64,000 nucleotides of DNA from Escherichia phage Lw1. The notes beneath the pieces are model-generated. The model was given only the letters and a program-made list of their open reading frames with translations, made no database searches and was not told the origin of the DNA. Position 1 is the first letter of the stretch, and the number at the start of each line of letters is the position of its first letter. The position numbers were made by a program, and so were the translations under genes. Positions 2,747 through 21,679 of the stretch are shown piece after piece. The stretch lies in sequence record KC801932; one strand, given 5' to 3'.

Positions 2747-3360
2747 TTCGGCAACGTGTCCATTTTGCGTGATTTTTCCAACAGGGTTTTGATTACCGTA
2801 TCCATCGCCTGTTCTGTATCACCATCATGATAGATGATCGCGGTTTGATGCAAACCTTTCACCAAACGATTAATAATGTACGCCATTTCGGTCGGTAACA
2901 GTTTACCCGTTTCGTTGAATTTTTCAAACAGTTTGAACAGTTCTTCGTTATTCCCTTTCTTACTGAAATTGAAATTGTGCATACCAGACAGAAGACCATC
3001 CAGATACAGAACTGTTTTGTTATCAGAGCGGAGGTGTCCACCGATTTTGTAGTAGTTGCTGAAAACGTATGGCGCTTCACGAACATCATTGATTTCTAAA
3101 CCAGCATCATCGATATTGCCTACGTGGGAGAAGAAATCCGCATCGTTATCGAACAGGTTGATCGCGCCTTTCTTGTACGGGAAGCCAGCCAGATTAATGA
3201 CCCCCTTTTCATACGCATTATCGTTATCAACGACAACGTATTCAGGAAGCATAGGGGCATACGGTTTGTTTTTGTCGTGGTTTTCGCGATACGCTAAAGG
3301 TTCAGCCAGATAGAGGATATCGCCTTGTTTGACTTCATCCCAAAAGATATTACGTGACAT
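2743..3360 (-). CDS. hypothetical protein (205 aa; start at MSRNIFWDE)
   Basis: ORF track extension to 3528 overlaps the upstream gene and is rejected; start set at the internal ATG just downstream of the 3375-3395 hairpin. Confidence 0.45.
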   Translation of the reverse strand: MSRNIFWDEVKQGDILYLAEPLAYRENHDKNKPYAPMLPEYVVVDNDNAYEKGVINLAGFPYKKGAINLFDNDADFFSHVGNIDDAGLEINDVREAPYVFSNYYKIGGHLRSDNKTVLYLDGLLSGMHNFNFSKKGNNEELFKLFEKFNETGKLLPTEMAYIINRLVKGLHQTAIIYHDGDTEQAMDTVIKTLLEKSRKMDTLPK

Positions 3361-3400
3361 ATTAAATTCCTCAATATGCCCCCTTTCGGGGGCTATTTCA

Positions 3401-5620
3401 TTACAGTTTAACTTCTTTTTCTTCCAGAACGATTTCGCAATCGAATGTTGCATCTTTCCAGAACTCATGCGGGATGATTTTGTCTGCTTTAACCGATACT
3501 TTGGTTTCTTCAAAATCCAGATCCGCAAACCAGGCGTGGCCTACAACGATACCGTACATTACACGGCTCAGGCGCTTGTTCAGTGCGCGTACTTCGTTGA
3601 TGGTTGCCTTTGTTTCTTTATCAAGGTACTCGATTACCTTATCCTTGTCAAGCGCTGCGAGTTCAGCTTTAACAGCATCGTAAGCCCACAGGATGATCAG
3701 GTCGCCGTTGTTCAGTTTCTTCTTACCTTCGGCACGTTTCGCAACAGTTGCCGCTACAGCAGGAAGGGAGGAAACACCCTTGATTTTCAGATTCAGTTCT
3801 TTCGACATATAAACATCAGTCGAATCGGTACGGGTTACTTTCGGGGAGAATCCATAATCACGAATACCCTGTTCAGATAACCATTCACCAGCGGCTTCAC
3901 CGTATTTCTGTTTCAGACCTTCGGCATTACGTAAACCGATCGCGTCGTCACGGAAGAACTTCATCACCTTCTGACGACCTTTCAGGATTTCCAGACGGAT
4001 AGAGTCGTTTACATACTCTTTACCGGAGATCCCGCGAGTCATCGCACGGTTAACCAGAGGCAGACTTGTAAAGTCAACCAGTACCGACATGCGGTCTTCA
4101 CCGATTTTTGCCAGCGGCTTGATAGTCAAACCAGAAGCGCGAAGGTTTTTCAGTGTCGGAATATCGGTTTCCAGTGGCAGAACCTTAACGTTTACGATCC
4201 CATCTTTAACGATGGTGAAGTTACGCACCTGCTTAGTTTCGATTTTTTCCGGCAGTCCCAGTTCTTTCTGTTTGCTTTCTGGGATAGTTACGTAACCTTG
4301 CAGATCCGTGTTAATGGAAATGTTAGGACGTGAACTGTTGCCGACCAGATGTTTAACCGATACTTTGGTTGTTGTCTGGGTAAATTTCGGTGTCCATATT
4401 TCGTGCGTTACCATTTGTGCGGCTAATGCTTTGCGTTCTTCCGGTGTTTTCGCATTTGCGATCTGTTCTGACAGTTGATCCAGAGTATCATCTTCTTTCT
4501 GTACTGTCTGACGGCCTGTACGGTTGTACGCCCAGTGTTCAGAAGACAGGTCGATCACTGTGTCAGTTTCTGCCAGCAGTTCGAGAGCATCAACCAGAGT
4601 GAATGCGTTTTCGTCTGGAACCATGTTGTAATCAACACCTTCAATCAGACGTTTACCCGCATCAACTACCGCTTCCGCGATCAGGTCTTTGGCGTTGGAA
4701 TAATCCTGCTTAGTAAAGCAGTTATCGTAAGCCTTAATCAGACGAACGTCACCGACTTTTTTCAGCACTTTCCATGCCAGATCAGGGTTCATGGTATGAA
4801 GTGCATGATACAGAACCACGTACAGAACCTGTTCACCTTCCATCGTAGCCGGATCAAATCCGTCGATATCGTTGATTGCGTTTTCACCCAGCGCCCAGAT
4901 GTTTTTGATGTGTTCTGGAACCAGTACAACACCATTTGCAGCGTTCAGGACATACACGCGCCCTTCGTCCAGATAGATCGCATGGGTAGCGTCACCGACC
5001 TTGACTTCAACACGCGGTGATGTTTGCGCGGTGATGATTTCAGCAAATGCTGGCTCGTATGCGTCGAAACCTTCAACGAATTTATGCAATGCGTTGGTTG
5101 CTTCTGCCATTTTTTCCAGCAGCGGACGGTTTACATAATAACCGTATTCCAAGAACGCGATGCTGTTAAAAGTCAGCGGGAGAACCGCACACGCTTTCAG
5201 GATGTCATCGGTACGCCAGCAGTTATCATAACCATCCGTAAGGAAGATCAGGCTGTTCAGATTGCCGTTTTCGGATTGCAGATCAGTTGCGATTTCCGCA
5301 GCCAGGTTCAGAGGTTCAACGAAACCAGTACAACCAGTGGGTTTCAGATAGCGGTCGATCGCGGTGCAGATGTTAGTCAGATCGGATACGTTGCTAACCT
5401 TCTCACCACGGAACACAGTACCGTAATCGCCTTTGCTGGAGAAGTACAGAATCGAAACTGTATCATCCTGTTTAACCAGACTCGCCAGGTTTGCTTTCAG
5501 ATGTTTACGGATTTTCGGGAGTTCGTTATACATAGAACCGGAAACGTCACACACGAAAACGTGGTTGGTCGGAGTCGGCTTCGATACTGCGTTTTTGAAT
5601 TCGATATTTGTAATTGACAT
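3401..5620 (-). CDS. von Willebrand factor A (vWA) domain protein, 739 aa
   Basis: N-terminal MIDAS-type motif VFVCDVSGSM ... LYFSS ... FLTDG (DxSxS..T..D); long C-terminal region of unknown function. Confidence 0.6.
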   Translation of the reverse strand: MSITNIEFKNAVSKPTPTNHVFVCDVSGSMYNELPKIRKHLKANLASLVKQDDTVSILYFSSKGDYGTVFRGEKVSNVSDLTNICTAIDRYLKPTGCTGFVEPLNLAAEIATDLQSENGNLNSLIFLTDGYDNCWRTDDILKACAVLPLTFNSIAFLEYGYYVNRPLLEKMAEATNALHKFVEGFDAYEPAFAEIITAQTSPRVEVKVGDATHAIYLDEGRVYVLNAANGVVLVPEHIKNIWALGENAINDIDGFDPATMEGEQVLYVVLYHALHTMNPDLAWKVLKKVGDVRLIKAYDNCFTKQDYSNAKDLIAEAVVDAGKRLIEGVDYNMVPDENAFTLVDALELLAETDTVIDLSSEHWAYNRTGRQTVQKEDDTLDQLSEQIANAKTPEERKALAAQMVTHEIWTPKFTQTTTKVSVKHLVGNSSRPNISINTDLQGYVTIPESKQKELGLPEKIETKQVRNFTIVKDGIVNVKVLPLETDIPTLKNLRASGLTIKPLAKIGEDRMSVLVDFTSLPLVNRAMTRGISGKEYVNDSIRLEILKGRQKVMKFFRDDAIGLRNAEGLKQKYGEAAGEWLSEQGIRDYGFSPKVTRTDSTDVYMSKELNLKIKGVSSLPAVAATVAKRAEGKKKLNNGDLIILWAYDAVKAELAALDKDKVIEYLDKETKATINEVRALNKRLSRVMYGIVVGHAWFADLDFEETKVSVKADKIIPHEFWKDATFDCEIVLEEKEVKL

Positions 5621-7981: not shown

Positions 7982-8236
7982 TTAAAAAAGATGCGTTAAA
8001 TGTCCTGCATTGCTGGGGTATTCGACGTAATCACCACGGAAGATGTTCAAATCTTTATCAAATTTAAACCCATGTCCTTGAACATCTTCATGACGAGATA
8101 CATAAGATACTCCATACTTTTCAAGGTCTTCCATATACATTTCGGTGATTCTCTTCGCTTTATCCAATCCGCGTCCCTCAAATCGAGAACGTCGATAATT
8201 CGCAAGAAGAAACGCATATAATTCTTCGTATGTCAT
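7982..8236 (-). CDS. hypothetical protein (84 aa)
   Basis: ORF; overlaps upstream methyltransferase gene end. Confidence 0.45.
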   Translation of the reverse strand: MTYEELYAFLLANYRRSRFEGRGLDKAKRITEMYMEDLEKYGVSYVSRHEDVQGHGFKFDKDLNIFRGDYVEYPSNAGHLTHLF

Positions 8237-9144
8237 TTCAATACCTTTCTGATTTGTTTCGCTATGGCTTCGATCACGGGTATTGAAACTGAATTTCCCG
8301 CTTGACGATATGCCTGTTTTTTACTATCCGGTATGATAAATGAATCAGGGAATCCCTGCAAACGAAAACACTCACGGGGAGTAAGTCTTCTGGGGTTCTT
8401 TCCTTCCTGCAACACCAGACATTGAACGCCGTCCTTGTAATACTGCTGGGTTATCGTCCCAGTGTGCGTAGAATCGCTTGTGACGGCCTGATAACCAAAC
8501 CCCTTACCATTCGCCTTGTTTCGTTCCTTACGCTCTCTAAAGCCTTTCCACGCGTTATCTGATAGGGTGTATGAATCATCAGCATCTTCGAGGATATCGC
8601 CCACTCTCGTAGGGGTACGCGGAGGAACAGGAAACGAAAAGAATACATCATCCAGGAAGCAAACAATAAACACACGTTCACGTCTTTGTGGTAGTCCGAA
8701 ATCTTTTGTATTCAGTCGTTGATAGAATACGTTATATCCTTCGGCCTCCAGAAGCCCGTAAATCGTTTTAAACGTCTTCCCCTTGTCATGGGTTAGTAGT
8801 TCAGGCACGTTCTCAAAGAACAGCACACGGGGCTTTTTAGCGCGTATGATGCGGAGTATTTCAAAGAACACAGTACCGCGAACATCATCGAACCCCAGTT
8901 TTAATCCTGCTTTACTGAATGCCTGACACGGGAACCCAGCCAACAGGATATCGTGATCAGGTACTTCGGTTTCTTTTATCTGGAACAGATCTCCCTGTAG
9001 GTTATCATTGCCCCAGTTTTCGATATATGTTTGCTGTGCGAACTTGTCGATTTCAGACGTTAAAAGGCATTCGACACCGCCGAACGCCTTATCAAATCCT
9101 AATCGAACCCCGCCCACACCAGCACAGAGGTCAATTATTTTCAT
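8233..9144 (-). CDS. DNA (cytosine-5)-methyltransferase, Dcm-like
   Basis: all canonical C5-MTase motifs in order: I DLCAGVGG, IV GFPCQAFS, VI FENVPEL, VIII QRRERVF, IX RLTPRECFRLQGFPDSF, X GNSVSIPV. Confidence 0.9.
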   Translation of the reverse strand: MKIIDLCAGVGGVRLGFDKAFGGVECLLTSEIDKFAQQTYIENWGNDNLQGDLFQIKETEVPDHDILLAGFPCQAFSKAGLKLGFDDVRGTVFFEILRIIRAKKPRVLFFENVPELLTHDKGKTFKTIYGLLEAEGYNVFYQRLNTKDFGLPQRRERVFIVCFLDDVFFSFPVPPRTPTRVGDILEDADDSYTLSDNAWKGFRERKERNKANGKGFGYQAVTSDSTHTGTITQQYYKDGVQCLVLQEGKNPRRLTPRECFRLQGFPDSFIIPDSKKQAYRQAGNSVSIPVIEAIAKQIRKVLK

Positions 9145-9685: not shown

Positions 9686-9921
9686 TCCGTTTCGATACCG
9701 TATTTGTATGCGTCAATCCCCAGAGGGGTGATCAACAGACACATATCAGTATTTTCGTTTGGCGACTTAAACGCCGCAGTTGCGTAACCTTTTTCAATCA
9801 GGGCATTACGCCCTGATTTACTGGGTACGTCATCGAAATCCAATGTTAACACCTGTGATGCATATCTGTAAAGTTTATACAGCACGTCAATTTCAGCACC
9901 GGATAATTTCGGGAATGTCAT
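9676..9921 (-). CDS. hypothetical protein (81 aa)
   Basis: ORF. Confidence 0.45.
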   Translation of the reverse strand: MTFPKLSGAEIDVLYKLYRYASQVLTLDFDDVPSKSGRNALIEKGYATAAFKSPNENTDMCLLITPLGIDAYKYGIETEWH

Positions 9922-10916
9922 TTGTAGTACCCCACAACGTGATCGCGATAAACGCGTTCGATAAAGTCGTTCCAGAACTCGCGATCAACCTCTTTCGGAT
10001 AATTAGAGACTGCTGCAAGGCGTTCGACTTCACCCATGATTTCTTCCAGCTTTTCCTGGACAAAAGTGAAAGGTTTCGTTCCGGCTTTAACTTCTTTTAA
10101 AAGCTGGCTCTCTTCCAGAGGATATACGATATCACCATGTTTGTAAATGCTGATAAGCTGTAAGCCTCCGCGCAATGCGTGAGAAAGTGCTTTCCAGTCG
10201 ATCCCGTTGTTGGCTTCTGCCTGTCTTGCTCGTTCACCATATTCGTCCCAGAGTTTATACACTGACTTTTTCATTTCAGCTACGGTGATCGTAGACTGGA
10301 ATTTGCGCCCCAGCACTTCATAGAAGTCCTGACAACCGGATTTCAGGGTTTTGTCTGTAGTGAATCGACAGAACTCATTGGTCGGGAATGTGTGAGAGAC
10401 TTCACCAACTTTGATGTGATGTGTTGCGTCACCCAGATTAGACGGCATACGAACAATGCGGCTATTTGGTGTATCCTGCAACACATCGTATACTTCACGC
10501 AGTGCAGCCAGGCGAGAACCTTTAACGCCATACTTCGCCGCTTGCTTACGAACATAACCAAACAGGCCAGTTAGTTCCGTAGTGTAGAAACGTGAACGGT
10601 TAGCGCGGATATACTGCCAGATTTCGGAGTTAGCGATCATCTTACTATCATCAGCATGAAGCATATCGAGCGCTACGGTATCACCATCACACGCAAGGCT
10701 AATGAACTTAGGCAGACTATACAACTGACGGTCGATGTCGTCTACGGTGTTCTTAGAGCTTTTATCGCCCGTGCTCGTGTCGATAGTCTTCGGGGCTTTA
10801 CCCAGTAAGATATCGCGTGGATGCGGGAGAAAGATCCCTTTATAATCTTTGTCGCTTGTCGGGGTGTTCAGTCCATACAGGTGAGAACCGAACACAGTTT
10901 CCATTACAATTTTCAT
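9918..10916 (-). CDS. Pol-beta superfamily nucleotidyltransferase (332 aa)
   Basis: N-terminal GS-x9-[DE]h[DE] signature FGSHLYGLNTPTSDKDYKGIF with third acidic residue about 60 aa downstream (ALDMLHADD); helical C-terminal half. Confidence 0.55.
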   Translation of the reverse strand: MKIVMETVFGSHLYGLNTPTSDKDYKGIFLPHPRDILLGKAPKTIDTSTGDKSSKNTVDDIDRQLYSLPKFISLACDGDTVALDMLHADDSKMIANSEIWQYIRANRSRFYTTELTGLFGYVRKQAAKYGVKGSRLAALREVYDVLQDTPNSRIVRMPSNLGDATHHIKVGEVSHTFPTNEFCRFTTDKTLKSGCQDFYEVLGRKFQSTITVAEMKKSVYKLWDEYGERARQAEANNGIDWKALSHALRGGLQLISIYKHGDIVYPLEESQLLKEVKAGTKPFTFVQEKLEEIMGEVERLAAVSNYPKEVDREFWNDFIERVYRDHVVGYYK

Positions 10917-11311
10917 AGTTCAATACCTAATGTTTTTGCGATATCTTTCAGTTGAAATGTAGCGATTTCGGGAACAACAACATAATGAGTACCGAACTCT
11001 TTTCGTATTTTTTCGCACAGTTCAGTACGATACTGAATTTCATTGTATACAGTTTCGCTGCGATACATATAAAATCCACCCCATCCACCACCAGAACCCG
11101 AAGTCAACCCGCACTTACGATCGACTTTCTCAACGTTCCAGTCTTTCGCGTCAGCATCTTTGTTGGTGGATGCGTACAAGTATTGACGAGCAACCTTGAT
11201 TACGTGAAACACGCGAGGATTTTCGACTCTGCGATTATTGTAATTTCTTGTACCCGGATCGTAAATGGTATCACCCACTTTCACATCAGTTAAATCTTTC
11301 AAATTATTCAT
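10913..11311 (-). CDS. hypothetical protein (132 aa, Gly-rich GSGGGWGG)
   Basis: ORF; overlaps neighbours by 4 nt. Confidence 0.45.
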   Translation of the reverse strand: MNNLKDLTDVKVGDTIYDPGTRNYNNRRVENPRVFHVIKVARQYLYASTNKDADAKDWNVEKVDRKCGLTSGSGGGWGGFYMYRSETVYNEIQYRTELCEKIRKEFGTHYVVVPEIATFQLKDIAKTLGIEL

Positions 11312-12750: not shown

Positions 12751-13809
12751 TTAAAGTCCAGTAAACGCAACGATAATCTGATAGTGGTCATCGAAGAACT
12801 CACCACGTTTCTGTTTGACTTCGTGCATAGGCATCCAGAACGCCTCTGCTGCATCGTCAGCGCCTCCCATAATACGGGGCAGACTTCCATCATTGTTAGG
12901 CTCTAACTTGATGTATTGCGCTACAGTCGGTTTTGAGAAGTGTACGGAACGCTTCGGATGGTCGAACAGCATAGAATTGCGGATTGAACCACGGATAACC
13001 TTTTCAGGAACCTTGATCCGAACTTCTTCGAGCAATTCGCGGATCGCACAATCCAGGAACGTTTCATTCGCGTTTTTGTGTCCACCTGGCAGGGCTAATG
13101 CGCCTTTACCTGGTGCAAACTTACGACGAATCACTAACACATGGTTATTACAAACAACCACGCTATCACCAGTACAACAGTTTAACGCGTCGGGGTATGG
13201 GTACGCTTTGAACTTCTCCAGTTCATCTTCCCATTTCTCGAACTCGTAGTACAAGCGCCAGAACGTATCGGTCATCATCCATCCGTTAAGAGAACCCACG
13301 ACAGCAGCAGGAACATAACGGGCGATCTTCTCGTCCCATCCATTTTTATGTAAAAAGATGGTTGGACGCAGGTCGGTAGCAGATAAATCTTTGCCGTCAA
13401 CCTTAACCGGATCAACCGGAACATGAGTCCATCCGAACGCTTTAAGCCAGTACGAATCAGCATCTTTTTCGTAACCGTAGATCGCGATGTTATCGCCTTT
13501 GGTTTCGTCGATTGCTGTACGAACAGAGGTTTTCCATTTTTCTTCATTGTAAAGGTAATCTGGAATCGGCTTGAATTGCACACGGGCTACATCTTCGTAT
13601 TTGAACTCAGACAGTAACCAGCTTGTAATCATACGTTCCCGTTCGGTTGCCGTCAGCGGGTTTAAAACGTTAGGGTAAGCATAAGCTGAACCCAGGAGGA
13701 TATAAACGGTCTTCGACTCTTCCAGTGCTTTACGCACCATTGCCGCGTGACCATTATGGAAGGGTTGGAATCTGCCAATTACGACAGCTTTATCAAATTT
13801 GTATTTCAT
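12751..13809 (-). CDS. bifunctional NMN adenylyltransferase / Nudix hydrolase (NatV/NadM-like)
   Basis: N-terminal (H/T)xGH nucleotidyltransferase motif GRFQPFHNGH; C-terminal Nudix box GGHKNANETFLDCAIRELLEEV; start set at MKYKFDK with GTGGAG RBS. Confidence 0.8.
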   Translation of the reverse strand: MKYKFDKAVVIGRFQPFHNGHAAMVRKALEESKTVYILLGSAYAYPNVLNPLTATERERMITSWLLSEFKYEDVARVQFKPIPDYLYNEEKWKTSVRTAIDETKGDNIAIYGYEKDADSYWLKAFGWTHVPVDPVKVDGKDLSATDLRPTIFLHKNGWDEKIARYVPAAVVGSLNGWMMTDTFWRLYYEFEKWEDELEKFKAYPYPDALNCCTGDSVVVCNNHVLVIRRKFAPGKGALALPGGHKNANETFLDCAIRELLEEVRIKVPEKVIRGSIRNSMLFDHPKRSVHFSKPTVAQYIKLEPNNDGSLPRIMGGADDAAEAFWMPMHEVKQKRGEFFDDHYQIIVAFTGL

Positions 13810-13834
13810 AACGTGCTCCACGTTTAAAGGGTAA

Positions 13835-13933
13835 TCATAAAACAGACGCAATAATCAATACACCAAGCAAACCGCCAATAAAGCCGAAGAATAGCGAAAT
13901 GAAGATAGATAAGATGATCTGTTTTATGTTCAT
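13835..13933 (-). CDS. possible 32-aa hydrophobic peptide
   Basis: ATG..TGA ORF below ORF-track size cut-off; single predicted TM helix; low confidence. Confidence 0.25.
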   Translation of the reverse strand: MNIKQIILSIFISLFFGFIGGLLGVLIIASVL

Positions 13934-13985: not shown

Positions 13986-14912
13986 TTATTTACGGGAATC
14001 GAAAATCACTTTACCAGCGTAATCCGAACCCATGACAGTCTGAGGTACACCACCTTTATAACGGGTAGAGTAGTTCATCTGTACATCCAGTTCTTTCCAG
14101 CGGATCATTTCTGGGGTAATTGTGCGTTGCAGTACGGCGTTAGCCTCCGCTTCTTTCTTCGCTGCGTACAGTTTAGCATCAGCATCACGTTCGTTGGCAA
14201 TCGCATCGTTTTCACGCGCCTGACGATTTGCTTCCGCTTGTTTTACCTGTTGCTGTGAAGTCTGTTCGACTTTTGCCAGTTCCGCACGAGCGGCGTTAAC
14301 CTGTTCTTCACGAATTTTCGTGTTAGTTACCTGTTCCATGATAACATCCGGCAGGGTGATATCCTGCAAGAATACCTGTTTCACGGTGTAACCGTAAGGA
14401 CGCGCATACTCTTCGACTTCCTGTTGAATTGCGGTCTGCAACTGGTTCTGGATCTTAGCATCAAACAGATCCTGTGCTTTTGGAACCGATTTGCCGAACT
14501 CGCGAACGGTTGACAGCAGTTTTTCGGTTACATACTTATCCAGTGCCTGTTCCTGGTCTCCCGCGTTGATGCGGTTGATAGGCGCTTTGTTACCGTCAAA
14601 TTGCAGCATAACGGTCATATCAACAGTGGATTTAAACTTATCCTGTGAAGGAACCTGCAATTTATCGAACTTCTTCGCAATGTCTTTCGTGCTGAAAGTA
14701 TCGAAATCAGCCAGCGGGTTTACGATATGGAAACCAGGCAGTACAGGTTTCGGAGAAACCTTACCCATGAAGGTCTGAGTTTTGACCGTGCCGTCCTGTA
14801 CTACTGTAAAGGAGTTCGGAACCAGCCACAGTGCGGCTACTACGCCCAGAGCGATCAGAGTGGTTTTCTTCGGGTTGTTCAGGATAGTATTCATATTCAT
14901 AGTATGTCTCAT
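13986..14912 (-). CDS. SPFH/band-7 (prohibitin-like) domain membrane protein
   Basis: N-terminal TM helix LIALGVVAALWLV, then SPFH-like core and long Ala/Gln/Glu-rich coiled-coil tail. Confidence 0.55.
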   Translation of the reverse strand: MRHTMNMNTILNNPKKTTLIALGVVAALWLVPNSFTVVQDGTVKTQTFMGKVSPKPVLPGFHIVNPLADFDTFSTKDIAKKFDKLQVPSQDKFKSTVDMTVMLQFDGNKAPINRINAGDQEQALDKYVTEKLLSTVREFGKSVPKAQDLFDAKIQNQLQTAIQQEVEEYARPYGYTVKQVFLQDITLPDVIMEQVTNTKIREEQVNAARAELAKVEQTSQQQVKQAEANRQARENDAIANERDADAKLYAAKKEAEANAVLQRTITPEMIRWKELDVQMNYSTRYKGGVPQTVMGSDYAGKVIFDSRK

Positions 14913-16973: not shown

Positions 16974-17146
16974 TCTCTCGCCTCTTTACGTTCTTTATCG
17001 ATTAAGTCATCAACGAAACTGACAATATCATCCCACCAGTCCAATGCTTCCTGTGATGCTTTCGCGTCACCTTCGAGGAAACGATCGCGGGACTTTACGA
17101 AGTTCTCTACTTTCTTATAGAGTTTTTCTTTATCTGCGTTGATCAT
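16970..17146 (-). CDS. hypothetical small protein (58 aa)
   Basis: ORF below track cut-off; ATGA overlaps at both ends couple it to neighbours. Confidence 0.35.
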   Translation of the reverse strand: MINADKEKLYKKVENFVKSRDRFLEGDAKASQEALDWWDDIVSFVDDLIDKERKEARE

Positions 17147-17619
17147 AATTCCACCTTACGCATATCAATAGACGGATCGAAGTGTACCACGATGGTCGGA
17201 TAGTCGCCAGTAGAATCGTTTATAATGTCTTTAATGCGTTCCCAGTCGCCTCCAGCAAGCCCCGCACCAATAAGAGGGTAACGTTCAGGACACGCCCTGG
17301 CGCTTTCCACGGCGCTTTCAAAGCATGAACGGATTGCGTCGTAATCCACTTGTGGGCCAGCACCCCAGAACTTAAACTGGGTATAGGCGTTGAACACCAT
17401 ACGACCATCCTCTTGAACATAAACAGAGTTACGGCCCAGTTTTTTCTGGTTGCCTTTAAGCGTCATTGCATCCATTCGAAACGCGCCAGGGATTTTCTTC
17501 TTTACTTCTTTTGCAATCCCCGCACCCATATTACAGAAGCAGTTACACCCATGAATCAGGTGTACGTCACGACGAAGGAACAACTCAACAGCGTTCCCTT
17601 TAATCTCTTTGATAATCAT
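17143..17619 (-). CDS. macrodomain protein, TARG1/DarG-like (ADP-ribose processing)
   Basis: LIHGCNCFCNMGAGIAKEV matches the recalled H-C-x-S/N-x-D/C-x-x-MGAGIA core of TARG1/OARD1-type macrodomains; second Gly-rich loop GAGLAGGDW. Confidence 0.55.
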   Translation of the reverse strand: MIIKEIKGNAVELFLRRDVHLIHGCNCFCNMGAGIAKEVKKKIPGAFRMDAMTLKGNQKKLGRNSVYVQEDGRMVFNAYTQFKFWGAGPQVDYDAIRSCFESAVESARACPERYPLIGAGLAGGDWERIKDIINDSTGDYPTIVVHFDPSIDMRKVEL

Positions 17620-18648: not shown

Positions 18649-19296
18649 TTAAATAATTTGCTTTTCTTCTAACAGTTTCGCGGTATGGTTAACCATGCGA
18701 GCATAATCACGGGCTTCTTTCTTCGTATACTTGAAGCCAGCGTTATAGCTTGCCAGCGCCTTTTTCAAGTCGCCTTTGTGGTAATCAAGCCAGTATTCCA
18801 GTTCATGAATGGCAAACTTAGAACCTCCCCGAAGGGATTCGAGCTTATTGATTACTACGCGTTTGGAATATGATTTATCCATCCGTGCGGAAGCACTGTT
18901 TACAGTGACTTGCCAACAGCCATAAGCATGATGACCTTTTTTGCCCTTTCCGGTGTTCTCACATGCGCGAGATTCGATCCAGGCAATAGCCGCTAAATGA
19001 TATCCCAAACGTTTCGATTTTTCTTTTTCAGCAGGTTTTGCAGTCGTTAGATCATAGTCGTTGCCAACTCTGAAAGCATACTCCAAAACCTTTTTCTGCT
19101 TTGGTGTAATTTCGTCCAATTCCTTGACATATGCAGGGGCATTGGCTGGTGCTTTCTTGATCACTGTTGCCTGTTGAAGCGGAAGTGTTGACTGAACAGC
19201 AGGAAGTTTTTCGATGAATTCTCCTAGCGGATCTGTCTTTGCGTGACCAGAAAAAGAGCATAAGAAAATGCTGGTCGCTAAAATAATTTTCTTCAT
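18649..19296 (-). CDS. secreted lytic transglycosylase-like (SLT domain) protein
   Basis: signal peptide; SLT-like motifs IESRACEN...GAYGCWQV and ASYNAG. Confidence 0.5.
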   Translation of the reverse strand: MKKIILATSIFLCSFSGHAKTDPLGEFIEKLPAVQSTLPLQQATVIKKAPANAPAYVKELDEITPKQKKVLEYAFRVGNDYDLTTAKPAEKEKSKRLGYHLAAIAWIESRACENTGKGKKGHHAYGCWQVTVNSASARMDKSYSKRVVINKLESLRGGSKFAIHELEYWLDYHKGDLKKALASYNAGFKYTKKEARDYARMVNHTAKLLEEKQII

Positions 19297-19356
19297 TGAT
19301 TAGTACCTTTTGTAACAAGAGAGGGCAATGATACCCTCACCTTATTATTTACGCAA

Positions 19357-19917
19357 CTAAAATTCTGGTTCTTCCGACTCACCCAGTTTATTGATGATGA
19401 ATTCAGCAACGTTATAGTTTGAAATCGACTTATTGGGATCGTACAGGGAAACGAGTTTTTCGAAAGATACTTGTACGACTTTCTTAAAGTGGACACCCCA
19501 GTTAGTAAAAAAGATCTCACTATTATCGAAACCACAATCAGGACTGAATAAAGCGCGATACTTATATCCGCTATAACCTTCCAGTCGGCTACTATGGTGT
19601 GCGTTACTGGTGATAAGGAAACGCCCCTGATGTGTTTCAACAACATAAAAGAAACCCAGACGTTCTTTATCATCAAATATACTGACAAATTTACGATGTG
19701 ATTCCTCGCGTTCAACACGGGTTTCAATGGCTTTCCATGTTGGTTCGTATTCAGGCCAGTCGTGTTCAACAACAACAGCCTTTAACGGTTCTTTACCATC
19801 ACGGGAACGCTGGCGTTCAACCCGTCGCGCAATAAAACGCAACTTTAGTTGGTCTTCGTATGACATTTTATCTACATCAGACAGTTTGATCACGATATAC
19901 TTTTGTTCGCGTTCCAT
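19357..19917 (-). CDS. hypothetical protein (186 aa)
   Basis: ORF. Confidence 0.45.
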   Translation of the reverse strand: MEREQKYIVIKLSDVDKMSYEDQLKLRFIARRVERQRSRDGKEPLKAVVVEHDWPEYEPTWKAIETRVEREESHRKFVSIFDDKERLGFFYVVETHQGRFLITSNAHHSSRLEGYSGYKYRALFSPDCGFDNSEIFFTNWGVHFKKVVQVSFEKLVSLYDPNKSISNYNVAEFIINKLGESEEPEF

Positions 19918-20093
19918 TATTTCACCACGATTTTATTATGACAGATAGGACAGGTGATCATTCTGTAGGTATCACGACCACCAGTGTAATCAGTATGCGT
20001 TTCTTCACGCACGTCTGTAGCATCATAGGAAAGAAGTGTTTCACATTTCCGACAGATCACTTCTTTTGGTTGCATCTTAACGACTTGTACCAT
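19917..20093 (-). CDS. small zinc-ribbon protein (58 aa; CRKC ... CPIC)
   Basis: ORF below track cut-off; paired CxxC motifs; TAATG coupling to downstream gene. Confidence 0.4.
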   Translation of the reverse strand: MVQVVKMQPKEVICRKCETLLSYDATDVREETHTDYTGGRDTYRMITCPICHNKIVVK

Positions 20094-20100
20094 AATAACC

Positions 20101-20298
20101 TCAGTTCAGATTTAAGTTGACTTTACTACCGCACTTAGGGCAGGTAATGAACTTCTTCACGATGTAGTCAGCAGGACTATAAAACCCGTTGTAAATGGTT
20201 ACTGTCTTGCTTTGAATGTCTTCCAGTTCGTATTCTAACCCAGTACGACAGGATTCACAAACAGTAATTAATTTTGGCGAAACGATAATTTTGATCAT
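20101..20298 (-). CDS. small zinc-ribbon protein (65 aa; CESC ... CPKC)
   Basis: GAGGT RBS before MIKIIV; same CxxC..CPxC architecture as neighbour. Confidence 0.45.
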   Translation of the reverse strand: MIKIIVSPKLITVCESCRTGLEYELEDIQSKTVTIYNGFYSPADYIVKKFITCPKCGSKVNLNLN

Positions 20299-20312
20299 GT
20301 ATACCTCACGAA

Positions 20313-20335
20313 AAAAGGGGCCGAAGCCCCTTTGA
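20313..20335 (-). terminator. hairpin ggggcttcggcccc + T6 terminator
   Basis: perfect GC stem, UUCG-type loop, T-run on minus strand; same stem recurs at 35161-35185. Confidence 0.7.
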
Positions 20336-21679
20336 TTAAAAGTTGTCTTCGACGAATGCTGCCAGGCGTCCACGATACACAGTATTCAGGATTATGTGAC
20401 TAGCATGGTCATATTCTTTAAGTTTTTCAACAGCATAGACAAAACCGTTGTTTACAGCAGTGTTTCGCGGGTTGTCAATCTGCTTAATATTCCCGCATAG
20501 TATCAGAAGTGTATTCTCTCCGCAACGGGAAATAATGGATTTTATTTCATGGTTGCTCAAGTTTTGACATTCGTCAACAATCAGCACTGAACCTTTACCA
20601 GGATCTGGGTGTCCGATAGAACGCCCACGGAAGTAATACAGGCTAGGGAACTGCACCACGCCTTTTTCCAGAAGTCCTTCAACGTACTTGTCAACTTCCG
20701 GTTGATCCTTAAACAGAATATTCAGGCTCGTGATACACGGTTCAACCGATGGTCGGAGTTTTTCACCCAGAGTACCAGGCAAGAACCCTATTTCACCAGA
20801 CAGCGGACTATCTGCCTTGACATACATCAGGTTTGCGAAGTGTCCCGCGTTAACCATGTGCATTGCGCCAGCAACCGCCAGCATTGTTTTACCCGAACCC
20901 GCCGCACCCATGATGGTCACAACGTCATTGTTCTTGTCCAGGATCGCATCAACGAATGACGCTTGCAGAGCATCGCGGGGCTGAATTGTTTTCATCAGCT
21001 TACGCTTTAACGCTTGTTCGTGCTTAATAGGCAACACTTCAAGCTGAAACTCTCCAGCAGCCACCACACGCCCTACAATCTCACCATCCGATAGAATGTA
21101 TTGGTTAGGGTAGAAATCCGCGTCAGGAAGCGATGAATACGTTATAACGGCAACAGGCCCGACATACTCCATGACTTCGACAGTTTCCCAGAACAGCGGC
21201 AGGTCGATATAACCTGAATACAACACATCACTATCTTTCAGCGAGTCATCGCCAGTGTATTGAAGAACCGGACAACCTTTAGACATCGCGATCAACAGCA
21301 TGTTAATGTCACGAGTCACCAGCGTTGCGCCCTGTTGAATACAGGTTGCAATGATCCGCGCATCCTGTTTATCGAGAGGGAACTCTTCGGGGCCGACATA
21401 ATCGACAATTTTGAGTGTTACACTTTCCGGTACTGCTGGGTTTGTTAAGTTTAACGAAACCCCTGTTTGGGTAATTGCTTCATAATTTTGTCCCAGGATT
21501 GCTTTGGACAATAGCCGGATCGCCAGTCGTGCTTCATGAGCGGTTCGCTCTTTGCTTTTCAGGTGATCCAGTTCTTCCATCGTTGCAGCAGTGATAATAA
21601 TTTCAGTATCAGGTTCGATGAAAGAGTAAACTGAATAGGGGTTCGAGATCAAAACGTTTGTATCGAGAACATATTTCAT
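20336..21679 (-). CDS. phoH: PIN-domain PhoH-like ATPase (YlaK-type)
   Basis: N-terminal PIN-like acidic core (LDTNVL...), Walker A GAAGSGKT, Walker B VDECQN. Confidence 0.8.
   Translation of the reverse strand: MKYVLDTNVLISNPYSVYSFIEPDTEIIITAATMEELDHLKSKERTAHEARLAIRLLSKAILGQNYEAITQTGVSLNLTNPAVPESVTLKIVDYVGPEEFPLDKQDARIIATCIQQGATLVTRDINMLLIAMSKGCPVLQYTGDDSLKDSDVLYSGYIDLPLFWETVEVMEYVGPVAVITYSSLPDADFYPNQYILSDGEIVGRVVAAGEFQLEVLPIKHEQALKRKLMKTIQPRDALQASFVDAILDKNNDVVTIMGAAGSGKTMLAVAGAMHMVNAGHFANLMYVKADSPLSGEIGFLPGTLGEKLRPSVEPCITSLNILFKDQPEVDKYVEGLLEKGVVQFPSLYYFRGRSIGHPDPGKGSVLIVDECQNLSNHEIKSIISRCGENTLLILCGNIKQIDNPRNTAVNNGFVYAVEKLKEYDHASHIILNTVYRGRLAAFVEDNF

Follow-up and report, generated by a model that had tools for sequence, protein, structure and literature searches.

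Two small zinc-ribbon-type genes of Escherichia phage Lw1 and the NAD+ and ADP-ribose gene neighbourhoods of their family

What do two very small genes, each encoding four cysteines in two knuckles, contribute to Escherichia phage Lw1, a T4-like Pseudotevenvirus of the RB43/RB16 group? We addressed this question for a gene pair in a 64,000-nucleotide stretch of the Lw1 genome (sequence record KC801932), referred to below as the window. Both are C4 zinc-ribbon (ZR) genes on the minus strand; ZR1 (19917-20093) encodes a protein of 58 amino acids (aa; MVQVVKMQPKEVICRKCETLLSYDATDVREETHTDYTGGRDTYRMITCPICHNKIVVK), and ZR2 (20101-20298) encodes one of 65 aa (MIKIIVSPKLITVCESCRTGLEYELEDIQSKTVTIYNGFYSPADYIVKKFITCPKCGSKVNLNLN). 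The original prediction, made from the letters of the DNA, had placed two adjacent open reading frames (ORFs) of these sizes here, with the motifs CRKC/CPIC and CESC/CPKC. Positions, sizes and motifs were correct, and the gap between the knuckles, given as about 40 residues, is actually 30 in ZR1 and 35 in ZR2. The smaller ORF had been rightly reported as missing from the ORF track, where 58 aa falls below the default 60-aa cut-off, yet it is annotated: Lw1_gp149, a 'hypothetical protein' in GenBank, is 100% identical to ZR1, and a protein of phage RB16 is 100% identical to ZR2. What is already known is an annotated gene pair from a catalogued but uncharacterised family. The genes look like ordinary 'hypothetical protein' genes, yet their family is large and nearly restricted to phages.

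Conserved genes within NAD+ and ADP-ribose clusters

ZR1 and ZR2 are real, conserved genes under purifying selection. The profile of PHROG 2834 (phrog_2834, unknown function) matches ZR1 with E 5.7e-19 (residues 1-57) and ZR2 with E 1.2e-16 (residues 2-64), and the hidden Markov model (HMM) of the family matches ZR1 with E 3.5e-25. Using tblastn, we found ZR2 orthologues in 173 phage records from Pseudotevenvirus and Slopekvirus, almost all of Straboviridae type, whose hosts are Klebsiella, Enterobacter, Cronobacter, Citrobacter and Escherichia. ZR1 matched 111 phage records; about 58 are in T4-like lineages that also carry ZR2, and the remaining matches are in unrelated phages of Pseudomonas (Otagovirus), Erwinia, Rhodobacter, Mesorhizobium and Xanthomonas. 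The ratio of nonsynonymous to synonymous substitution rates (dN/dS) is 0.11-0.18 for ZR1 and 0.07-0.12 for ZR2. We rejected chance ORFs on the strength of the conservation, the dN/dS values and the profile matches. No homologue was found in the part of T4 that was scanned, bases 1-80,000 of 169 kb (best E 0.19).

ZR1-like genes are strongly enriched inside clusters of nicotinamide adenine dinucleotide (NAD+) salvage, ADP-ribose and RNA-repair genes; phages employ the NAD+-rebuilding clusters against the immunity of bacteria. A degenerate DNA motif for DYxG..[DE]....I.CP.C picked out 119 loci in IMG/VR, 112 of them confirmed by the family HMM; these 112 contain NatV (31), NadV (27), Macro (19), RNA ligase (9), NadR (4) and NADAR (4). 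After dereplication at 70% ZR identity, 19 of the 66 clusters (29%) had a NAD+ salvage gene in the locus and 10 of the 66 had one within 400 nucleotides (nt); where each flank reached 3 kb or more (33 clusters), 10 had a salvage gene within 3 kb. In the commonest order NatV lies immediately upstream of the ZR gene and NadV lies downstream of it (NatV-ZR-(Macro)-NadV), the ZR gene starting 0-3 nt from where NatV stops; several loci, among them L103, L087 and L036, form operons of four genes, NatV-ZR-Macro-NadV, in which stops overlap starts. Under a conservative null model in which every one of these phages carries NARP2, the NadV plus NatV pair, at a random position, the probability of at least nine adjacent cases in 66 is ~7e-5, for loci that are not phylogenetically independent. 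NARP2 is present in 1.1% of phage genomes (10.1101/2024.02.11.579819) and NadV in 22-33% of medium and jumbo phages (PMC9503650). An unbiased Pfam scan of 127 immediate neighbours returned NUDIX+CTP_transf_like six times, NAPRTase+NAMPT_N and RNA_ligase+PHA02142 three times each, and HAD_PNKP+AAA_33 twice; after the NAD+ salvage genes, RNA ligase and PNK come next in frequency.

The same company is kept in individual annotated phage isolates. Rhodobacter phage RcXuper has the order NatV-ZR-NadV, with the ZR start overlapping the NatV stop; Mesorhizobium phage Cp1R7A-A1 has NMNAT-NAMPT-ZR; and Erwinia phage Hena1 has ZR-NadR-like-x-PnuC, the NadR and PnuC pair having recently been described as NARP3 (PMC13464706). 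NADAR lies two genes upstream of the ZR gene in Xanthomonas phage X1, and an RNA ligase gene precedes it in Pseudomonas phage M5.1. Identity is only 33-51% among the linked NatV proteins and 31-70% among their ZR proteins; the linkage is therefore either old or recurrent. ZR1 of Lw1 is 31-51% identical to the NARP2-adjacent ZR proteins (best E 6e-20). In many phages ZR1-like genes are thus embedded in or abut NARP2 or NARP3 operons, although the ZR protein is not among the two enzymes that define either (NadV and NatV; NadR and PnuC). No zinc-ribbon gene in these neighbourhoods is mentioned in the NARP1/2 preprint (10.1101/2024.02.11.579819), the NARP3 paper (PMC13464706) or the survey of viral NAD+-ADP-ribose genes (PMC9503650), and within the literature searchable here the association appears to be undescribed.

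The family: cysteines, predicted fold and copies

Searched against 1.84 billion representatives, the family profile retrieved at least 527 clusters at 50% identity (E <= 1e-3), nearly all of them stand-alone proteins of 55-75 aa. The original prediction had turned on whether the cysteines are conserved in orthologues, and they are: in an alignment of 130 family representatives, from which all conservation figures are taken, C17, C48 and C51 are invariant (100%) and C14 is 99% conserved. Other conserved positions are L21 (87%), Y23 (94%), D/E27 (99%), D35 (72%), Y36 (76%), G38 (88%), I46 (90%) and P49 (97%), together with an N-terminal hydrophobic segment, M-V/I-K-V/I-I. The exception is a leB-type group of ZR1 orthologues in about 40 genomes, whose first knuckle is C-R-C, one codon short of CxxC (for example L014:2501-2671, Cronobacter phage leB, and L023:6203-6373). 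Despite this unusual metal-site variant the group is still under purifying selection (dN/dS 0.15-0.18).

The AlphaFold model, whose predicted local distance difference test score rose from 80 with 9 sequences to 90 with 130 sequences, has five beta-strands (residues 10-13, 20-23, 29-34, 40-47 and 54-57) and both knuckles at hairpin turns. With their conserved cysteines and this predicted placement of the knuckles, ZR1 and ZR2 are stand-alone Cys4 proteins of zinc-ribbon type, and they would be expected to bind zinc. Like the classical zinc ribbons (RpoP/Rpb12, the TFIIS C-terminal domain, LysW, S27e and Nop10), they are small and have two knuckles at beta-hairpin turns and a CPxCG-type second knuckle. 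The charge of the family is near neutral (median net +1, median pI 7.6), which argues against unspecific nucleic-acid binding and for protein binding.

PHROG 2834, the family to which ZR1 and ZR2 belong and whose size and four cysteines they share, has no Pfam entry, solved structure or functional annotation, and no fold match supplied a function. No Pfam or NCBIfam model scored above its cut-off for the ZR proteins; PADLOC gave no match above threshold, only PDC-S64 with E 0.0057 for ZR1 and nothing for ZR2; a Protein Data Bank sequence search with two profiles gave matches confined to the cysteine knuckles; and the structure matches in BFVD were uncharacterised phage proteins only. We also compared Enki, a 52-aa 'zinc ribbon' directed against AbiH and retrons, and rejected kinship: it has a single CxxC and no CPxC, bears no resemblance to the ZR proteins in sequence, and serves as a functional precedent only. 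In Klebsiella phage vB_Kpn_K18PH07C1 a family member (E 3.6e-15) lies inside a coding sequence (CDS) annotated as a pseudogenised 'endonuclease VII' (L024:1186-1680), which is probably an annotation merge of two genes.

The two proteins had been called tandem zinc-ribbon paralogs. The zinc-ribbon type and the homology stand, since ZR1 and ZR2 align at 31% identity with E 3e-9 (BLASTP), and what does not stand is local duplication. Among 272 family sequences ZR2 ranks only 168th in similarity to ZR1, and ZR1 90th in similarity to ZR2, ranks that rule out a recent tandem duplication. ZR1 is a typical member of the main, widespread 'DYxGG' subfamily (pattern L.Y...D(V/I)...DYxG..D...I.CP.C), and ZR2 belongs to a divergent branch, seen only in T4-like Straboviridae, whose central hairpin carries 5 inserted residues. 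Given these low ranks and the divergence of the ZR2 branch, the two are distant paralogs, either old or independently acquired. Many relatives have ZR2 but no ZR1, among them Citrobacter phages Miller, CfP1 and IME-CF2 and Klebsiella phage KP15. The ZR2 gene of Miller (L002:3629-3844) carries an in-frame 6-residue duplication (IVKKFI IVKKFI) just ahead of the CPxC knuckle.

Several divergent family members also share one neighbourhood in unrelated gut phages or phages in metagenome-assembled genomes (MAGs; L022, L018, L156 and L188): L022 has two tandem copies (3360-3569 and 3591-3758), L018 three copies within 1.7 kb (2662-2910, 3467-3652 and 4001-4219), and L156 and L188 tandem pairs at about 3892-4420. 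Loci L009-L012 have a full copy and an N-terminal fragment (in L009, 4608-4694). Judged from these arrangements, multi-copy arrays and their decay recur across the family; among the IMG/VR ZR1-like loci, only 2 of 112 have a second copy.

The family is almost phage-only and hardly ever occurs in cellular genomes. When one genome per species was scanned for the motif, 185,579 prokaryotic species yielded 51 places, about 17 of them convincing members (E <= 1e-8), and several of these sit on obviously phage-derived contigs. The convincing members include a NatV-NadV-ZR cluster in Pseudaminobacter. One contig of a Flagellimonas marina assembly (L151, NZ_JBHSCL010000010.1, 178,077 bp) has the order TK-Macro-186aa-ZR1-ZR2-PhoH and the size of a whole Pseudotevenvirus, and is probably phage contamination of the assembly. 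A divergent subgroup of ~100 aa occurs in Firmicutes/CPR and Coprovivens MAGs (L160, L171, L176 and L182); its first CxxC is replaced by GNGGCGCG, DYGGGHD...CPEC is kept, and in L160, L171 and L182 the gene is directly upstream of an NMNAT-like gene. All family contexts that we examined are phage early or replication regions. No neighbour is conserved across the whole family; PhoH and a 186-aa gene are neighbours only in Straboviridae.

The ZR genes and the NAD+ genes in Lw1

RB16 and the ZR region of Lw1 share 88% DNA identity. The ORF listing lengthens ZR2 to a 90-aa GTG ORF that runs into phoH; we took the ATG at 20298 as the start, which is preceded by a GAGG and agrees with the 198-nt CDS annotated in RB16. 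This Shine-Dalgarno GAGG, read from the sequence, is at 20304-20307 on the minus strand, 5 nt upstream of the ATG. The corresponding GAGG of ZR1 (20099-20102, minus) is 5 nt before the ZR1 ATG and is overlapped by the ZR2 stop TGA (20101-20103), an arrangement that suggests translational coupling from ZR2 to ZR1. Sequence and ORF coordinates place a TAATG at 19915-19919 (minus), where ZR1 stops and the next gene downstream, of 186 aa (19357-19917, minus; phrog_7432, unknown function), starts with an overlapping ATG; this gene is syntenic with ZR genes only in Straboviridae.

Upstream of ZR2 is a PIN-PhoH gene (20336-21679, minus; 447 aa; Pfam PhoH E 7.6e-36, PIN_4 E 5.7e-16), whose place upstream of ZR2 is conserved, by synteny, in Pseudotevenvirus and Slopekvirus. 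An intrinsic-terminator-like hairpin, GGGGC-UUCG-GCCCC followed by a U run (20311-20333, minus; -16.3 kcal/mol, z -2.6), lies between ZR2 and the end of phoH, and a terminator is annotated at the equivalent position in phages Miller and KP15. Our promoter scan found no promoter-like site between the hairpin and ZR2, and no T4-type late promoter (TATAAATA) was found near the ZR genes; because of these two results, the ZR genes are probably co-transcribed with phoH by read-through of the terminator. An Rfam search of the whole window returned no RNA family.

Comparison of Lw1 19336-20650 with RB16 showed 97-100% identity except in two divergent patches, 19816-19875 and 19996-20115, and the flanks of this block are only 35-85% identical. 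The second patch covers the N-terminal half of ZR1 and the ZR2/ZR1 junction, with many synonymous differences in the ZR1 part. The alternation of identities reads as fine-scale mosaic recombination. Further downstream, RB16 (L001:2814-3998, compared with Lw1 18649-19296) has a split vs.1-like lysozyme-domain gene followed by an HNH endonuclease gene that is absent in Lw1, in agreement with the Lw1 genome note, which records no AP2-HNH genes.

Lw1 has NAD+ and ADP-ribose genes of its own downstream of the ZR genes on the same strand. A Macro-domain gene (17143-17619, minus; Pfam Macro E 1.1e-5) is 2.3 kb away, and a NatV/NadM homologue that combines nicotinamide mononucleotide adenylyltransferase and Nudix domains (12751-13851, minus; phmmer E 4.7e-58 to the RcXuper NatV; Pfam CTP_transf_like and NUDIX) is 6 kb away. 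NadV was not found within the window. Since every phage with NadM also has NadV (PMC9503650), we expect NadV to lie elsewhere in the Lw1 genome. Other minus-strand accessory genes between 8233 and 14912 encode a C5 DNA methylase (8233-9144), an RlaP 'RNA repair pathway' nucleotidyltransferase (9918-10916), a phage ProQ-C-like protein (10913-11311) and an SPFH/Band-7 protein (13986-14912).

Possible roles of the ZR proteins

We tentatively favour a reading of ZR1 and ZR2, built from gene neighbourhoods and predicted fold, as zinc-stabilised, protein-binding accessories of NAD+/ADP-ribose counter-defence. The proteins would work by binding other proteins, zinc serving only to keep a very small beta-scaffold together, and would be accessory factors in an early-expressed programme of NAD+/ADP-ribose (and RNA-repair) counter-defence. 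They could do so as small partners or regulators of the NatV/Macro enzymes, or as inhibitors of a host NAD+-consuming immune effector. In Lw1 the putative module would be dispersed on one strand, with NatV at 12.7 kb, Macro at 17.1 kb and ZR1/ZR2 at 19.9-20.3 kb, and the divergent ZR1 and ZR2 copies may give two specificities or form a heteromer. Extended to the whole family, the proposal is possible but doubtful: ZR proteins would be an unrecognised component of phage NAD+ reconstitution/ADP-ribose modules, either a translationally coupled subunit or regulator of NatV/Macro or an inhibitor of NADase effectors, and paralog pairs would form heteromers or address two targets. The original prediction had proposed the pair as candidates for host takeover factors; the broad label of host-interaction factor still fits, and the route suggested by the gene context differs, being NAD+/ADP-ribose and RNA-repair counter-defence.

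Several observations weigh against this proposal. The tie between ZR and NAD+ genes is guilt by association, as read from gene order. In Lw1 itself about 13 genes separate the ZR genes from NatV, and the neighbour conserved beside them is PIN-PhoH. In the locus DNA examined, ~60-70% of ZR1-like loci are free of NAD+ genes, and for ZR2-type proteins no NAD+ neighbours are seen. No ZR gene occurs in the NadV regions of Klebsiella phage Matisse and Vibrio phage D490, so the pathway does not need ZR and the linkage is not obligatory; we accordingly rejected ZR as an obligatory component of NARP2. NARP2 of the KVP40 type works as two genes (10.1101/2024.02.11.579819). Finally, the IMG/VR sample was drawn with a motif specific for ZR1-like genes, its loci are phylogenetically non-independent, and the counts stand without a control of random small genes.

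The ZR proteins might instead be stand-alone anti-defence or accessory inhibitors unrelated to NAD+, for example in restriction alleviation of the Lar type, that merely occupy the same anti-defence islands or hyperplastic early regions as NARP2, RNA-repair, MazG and Tad genes. We regard this as somewhat unlikely. The family's context outside NAD+ clusters does vary (in L020, MazG immediately upstream and a Tad2-like gene close by; Tad3 in L009, HicAB and an integrase in L022, replication genes in L017), and a variable copy number with decayed copies is typical of arms-race genes. Lar, a small cysteine-containing phage or prophage protein that acts against host defences, is a functional precedent only: it gave no Pfam match, and the weak match to the Lar-like PHROG 6422 (E 0.045) was obtained for ZR2 only. 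No significant match was found to Lar, PADLOC models or any known anti-defence family. Moreover, the start/stop overlap with NatV is kept in lineages only ~40% identical and ZR lies between NatV and NadV, which argues for more than loose co-location in an island. A partnership of the ZR proteins with PIN-PhoH, or with the 186-aa protein, or a regulatory role toward either in T4-like phages, is suggested by the strictly conserved order PhoH-terminator-ZR2-(ZR1)-186-aa in Pseudotevenvirus and Slopekvirus, with stops and starts that overlap or nearly so. We consider it quite unlikely, given that a terminator hairpin stands between phoH and ZR2 and that outside Straboviridae no family member was found beside PhoH or a 186-aa homologue.

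Two further explanations start from the knuckles themselves. As classical host-takeover factors, the route named in the original prediction, the ZR proteins would bind host RNA polymerase, ribosomes or nucleic acid. Their fold class is common to RpoP/Rpb12, TFIIS-C, S27e and Nop10; there are weak matches to zinc ribbons of this class; some homologues bear the automatic Joint Genome Institute names 'RPC12/RpoP' or 'ribosomal protein S27E'; and the minus-strand region of the genes is early-type and lacks a late-promoter motif close to them. We found no specific support for such binding, however, as the matches to RpoP/Rpb12, TFIIS, S27e and LysW cover the knuckles only and are below every threshold, and we judge this route unlikely. 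CxxC...CPxC is also the signature of rubredoxins, which would make the ZR proteins iron-binding redox proteins rather than zinc proteins. DUF7479 (NCBIfam NF045645, 'DVU_1557 family redox protein') does align weakly across both knuckles (residues 11-56), with E 0.001 for ZR1 and E < 0.01 for 23 of the 130 members (best 3.8e-5), but its scores all fall under the curated cut-offs, at 19.6 against 27 bits in Pfam and 15.6 against 60 bits in NCBIfam. Pfam Rubredoxin (PF00301) is absent at E <= 1 for both proteins and from the top families of the 130 members, and there is no rubredoxin among the fold matches; an iron-binding role is therefore very improbable.

Accessory function in NAD+/ADP-ribose counter-defence, our tentative reading, matches the most frequent identifiable neighbours of the family, which are enzymes of NAD+ rebuilding (NadV/NatV, NadR/PnuC), ADP-ribose processing (Macro, NADAR) and RNA repair. 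If the link is functional, NARP2-type operons would have an overlooked small component, one that could explain the regulation or toxicity of the pathway. Either way, the ZR family provides a concrete and cheap target for knock-outs and pull-downs in phage-bacterium immunity.

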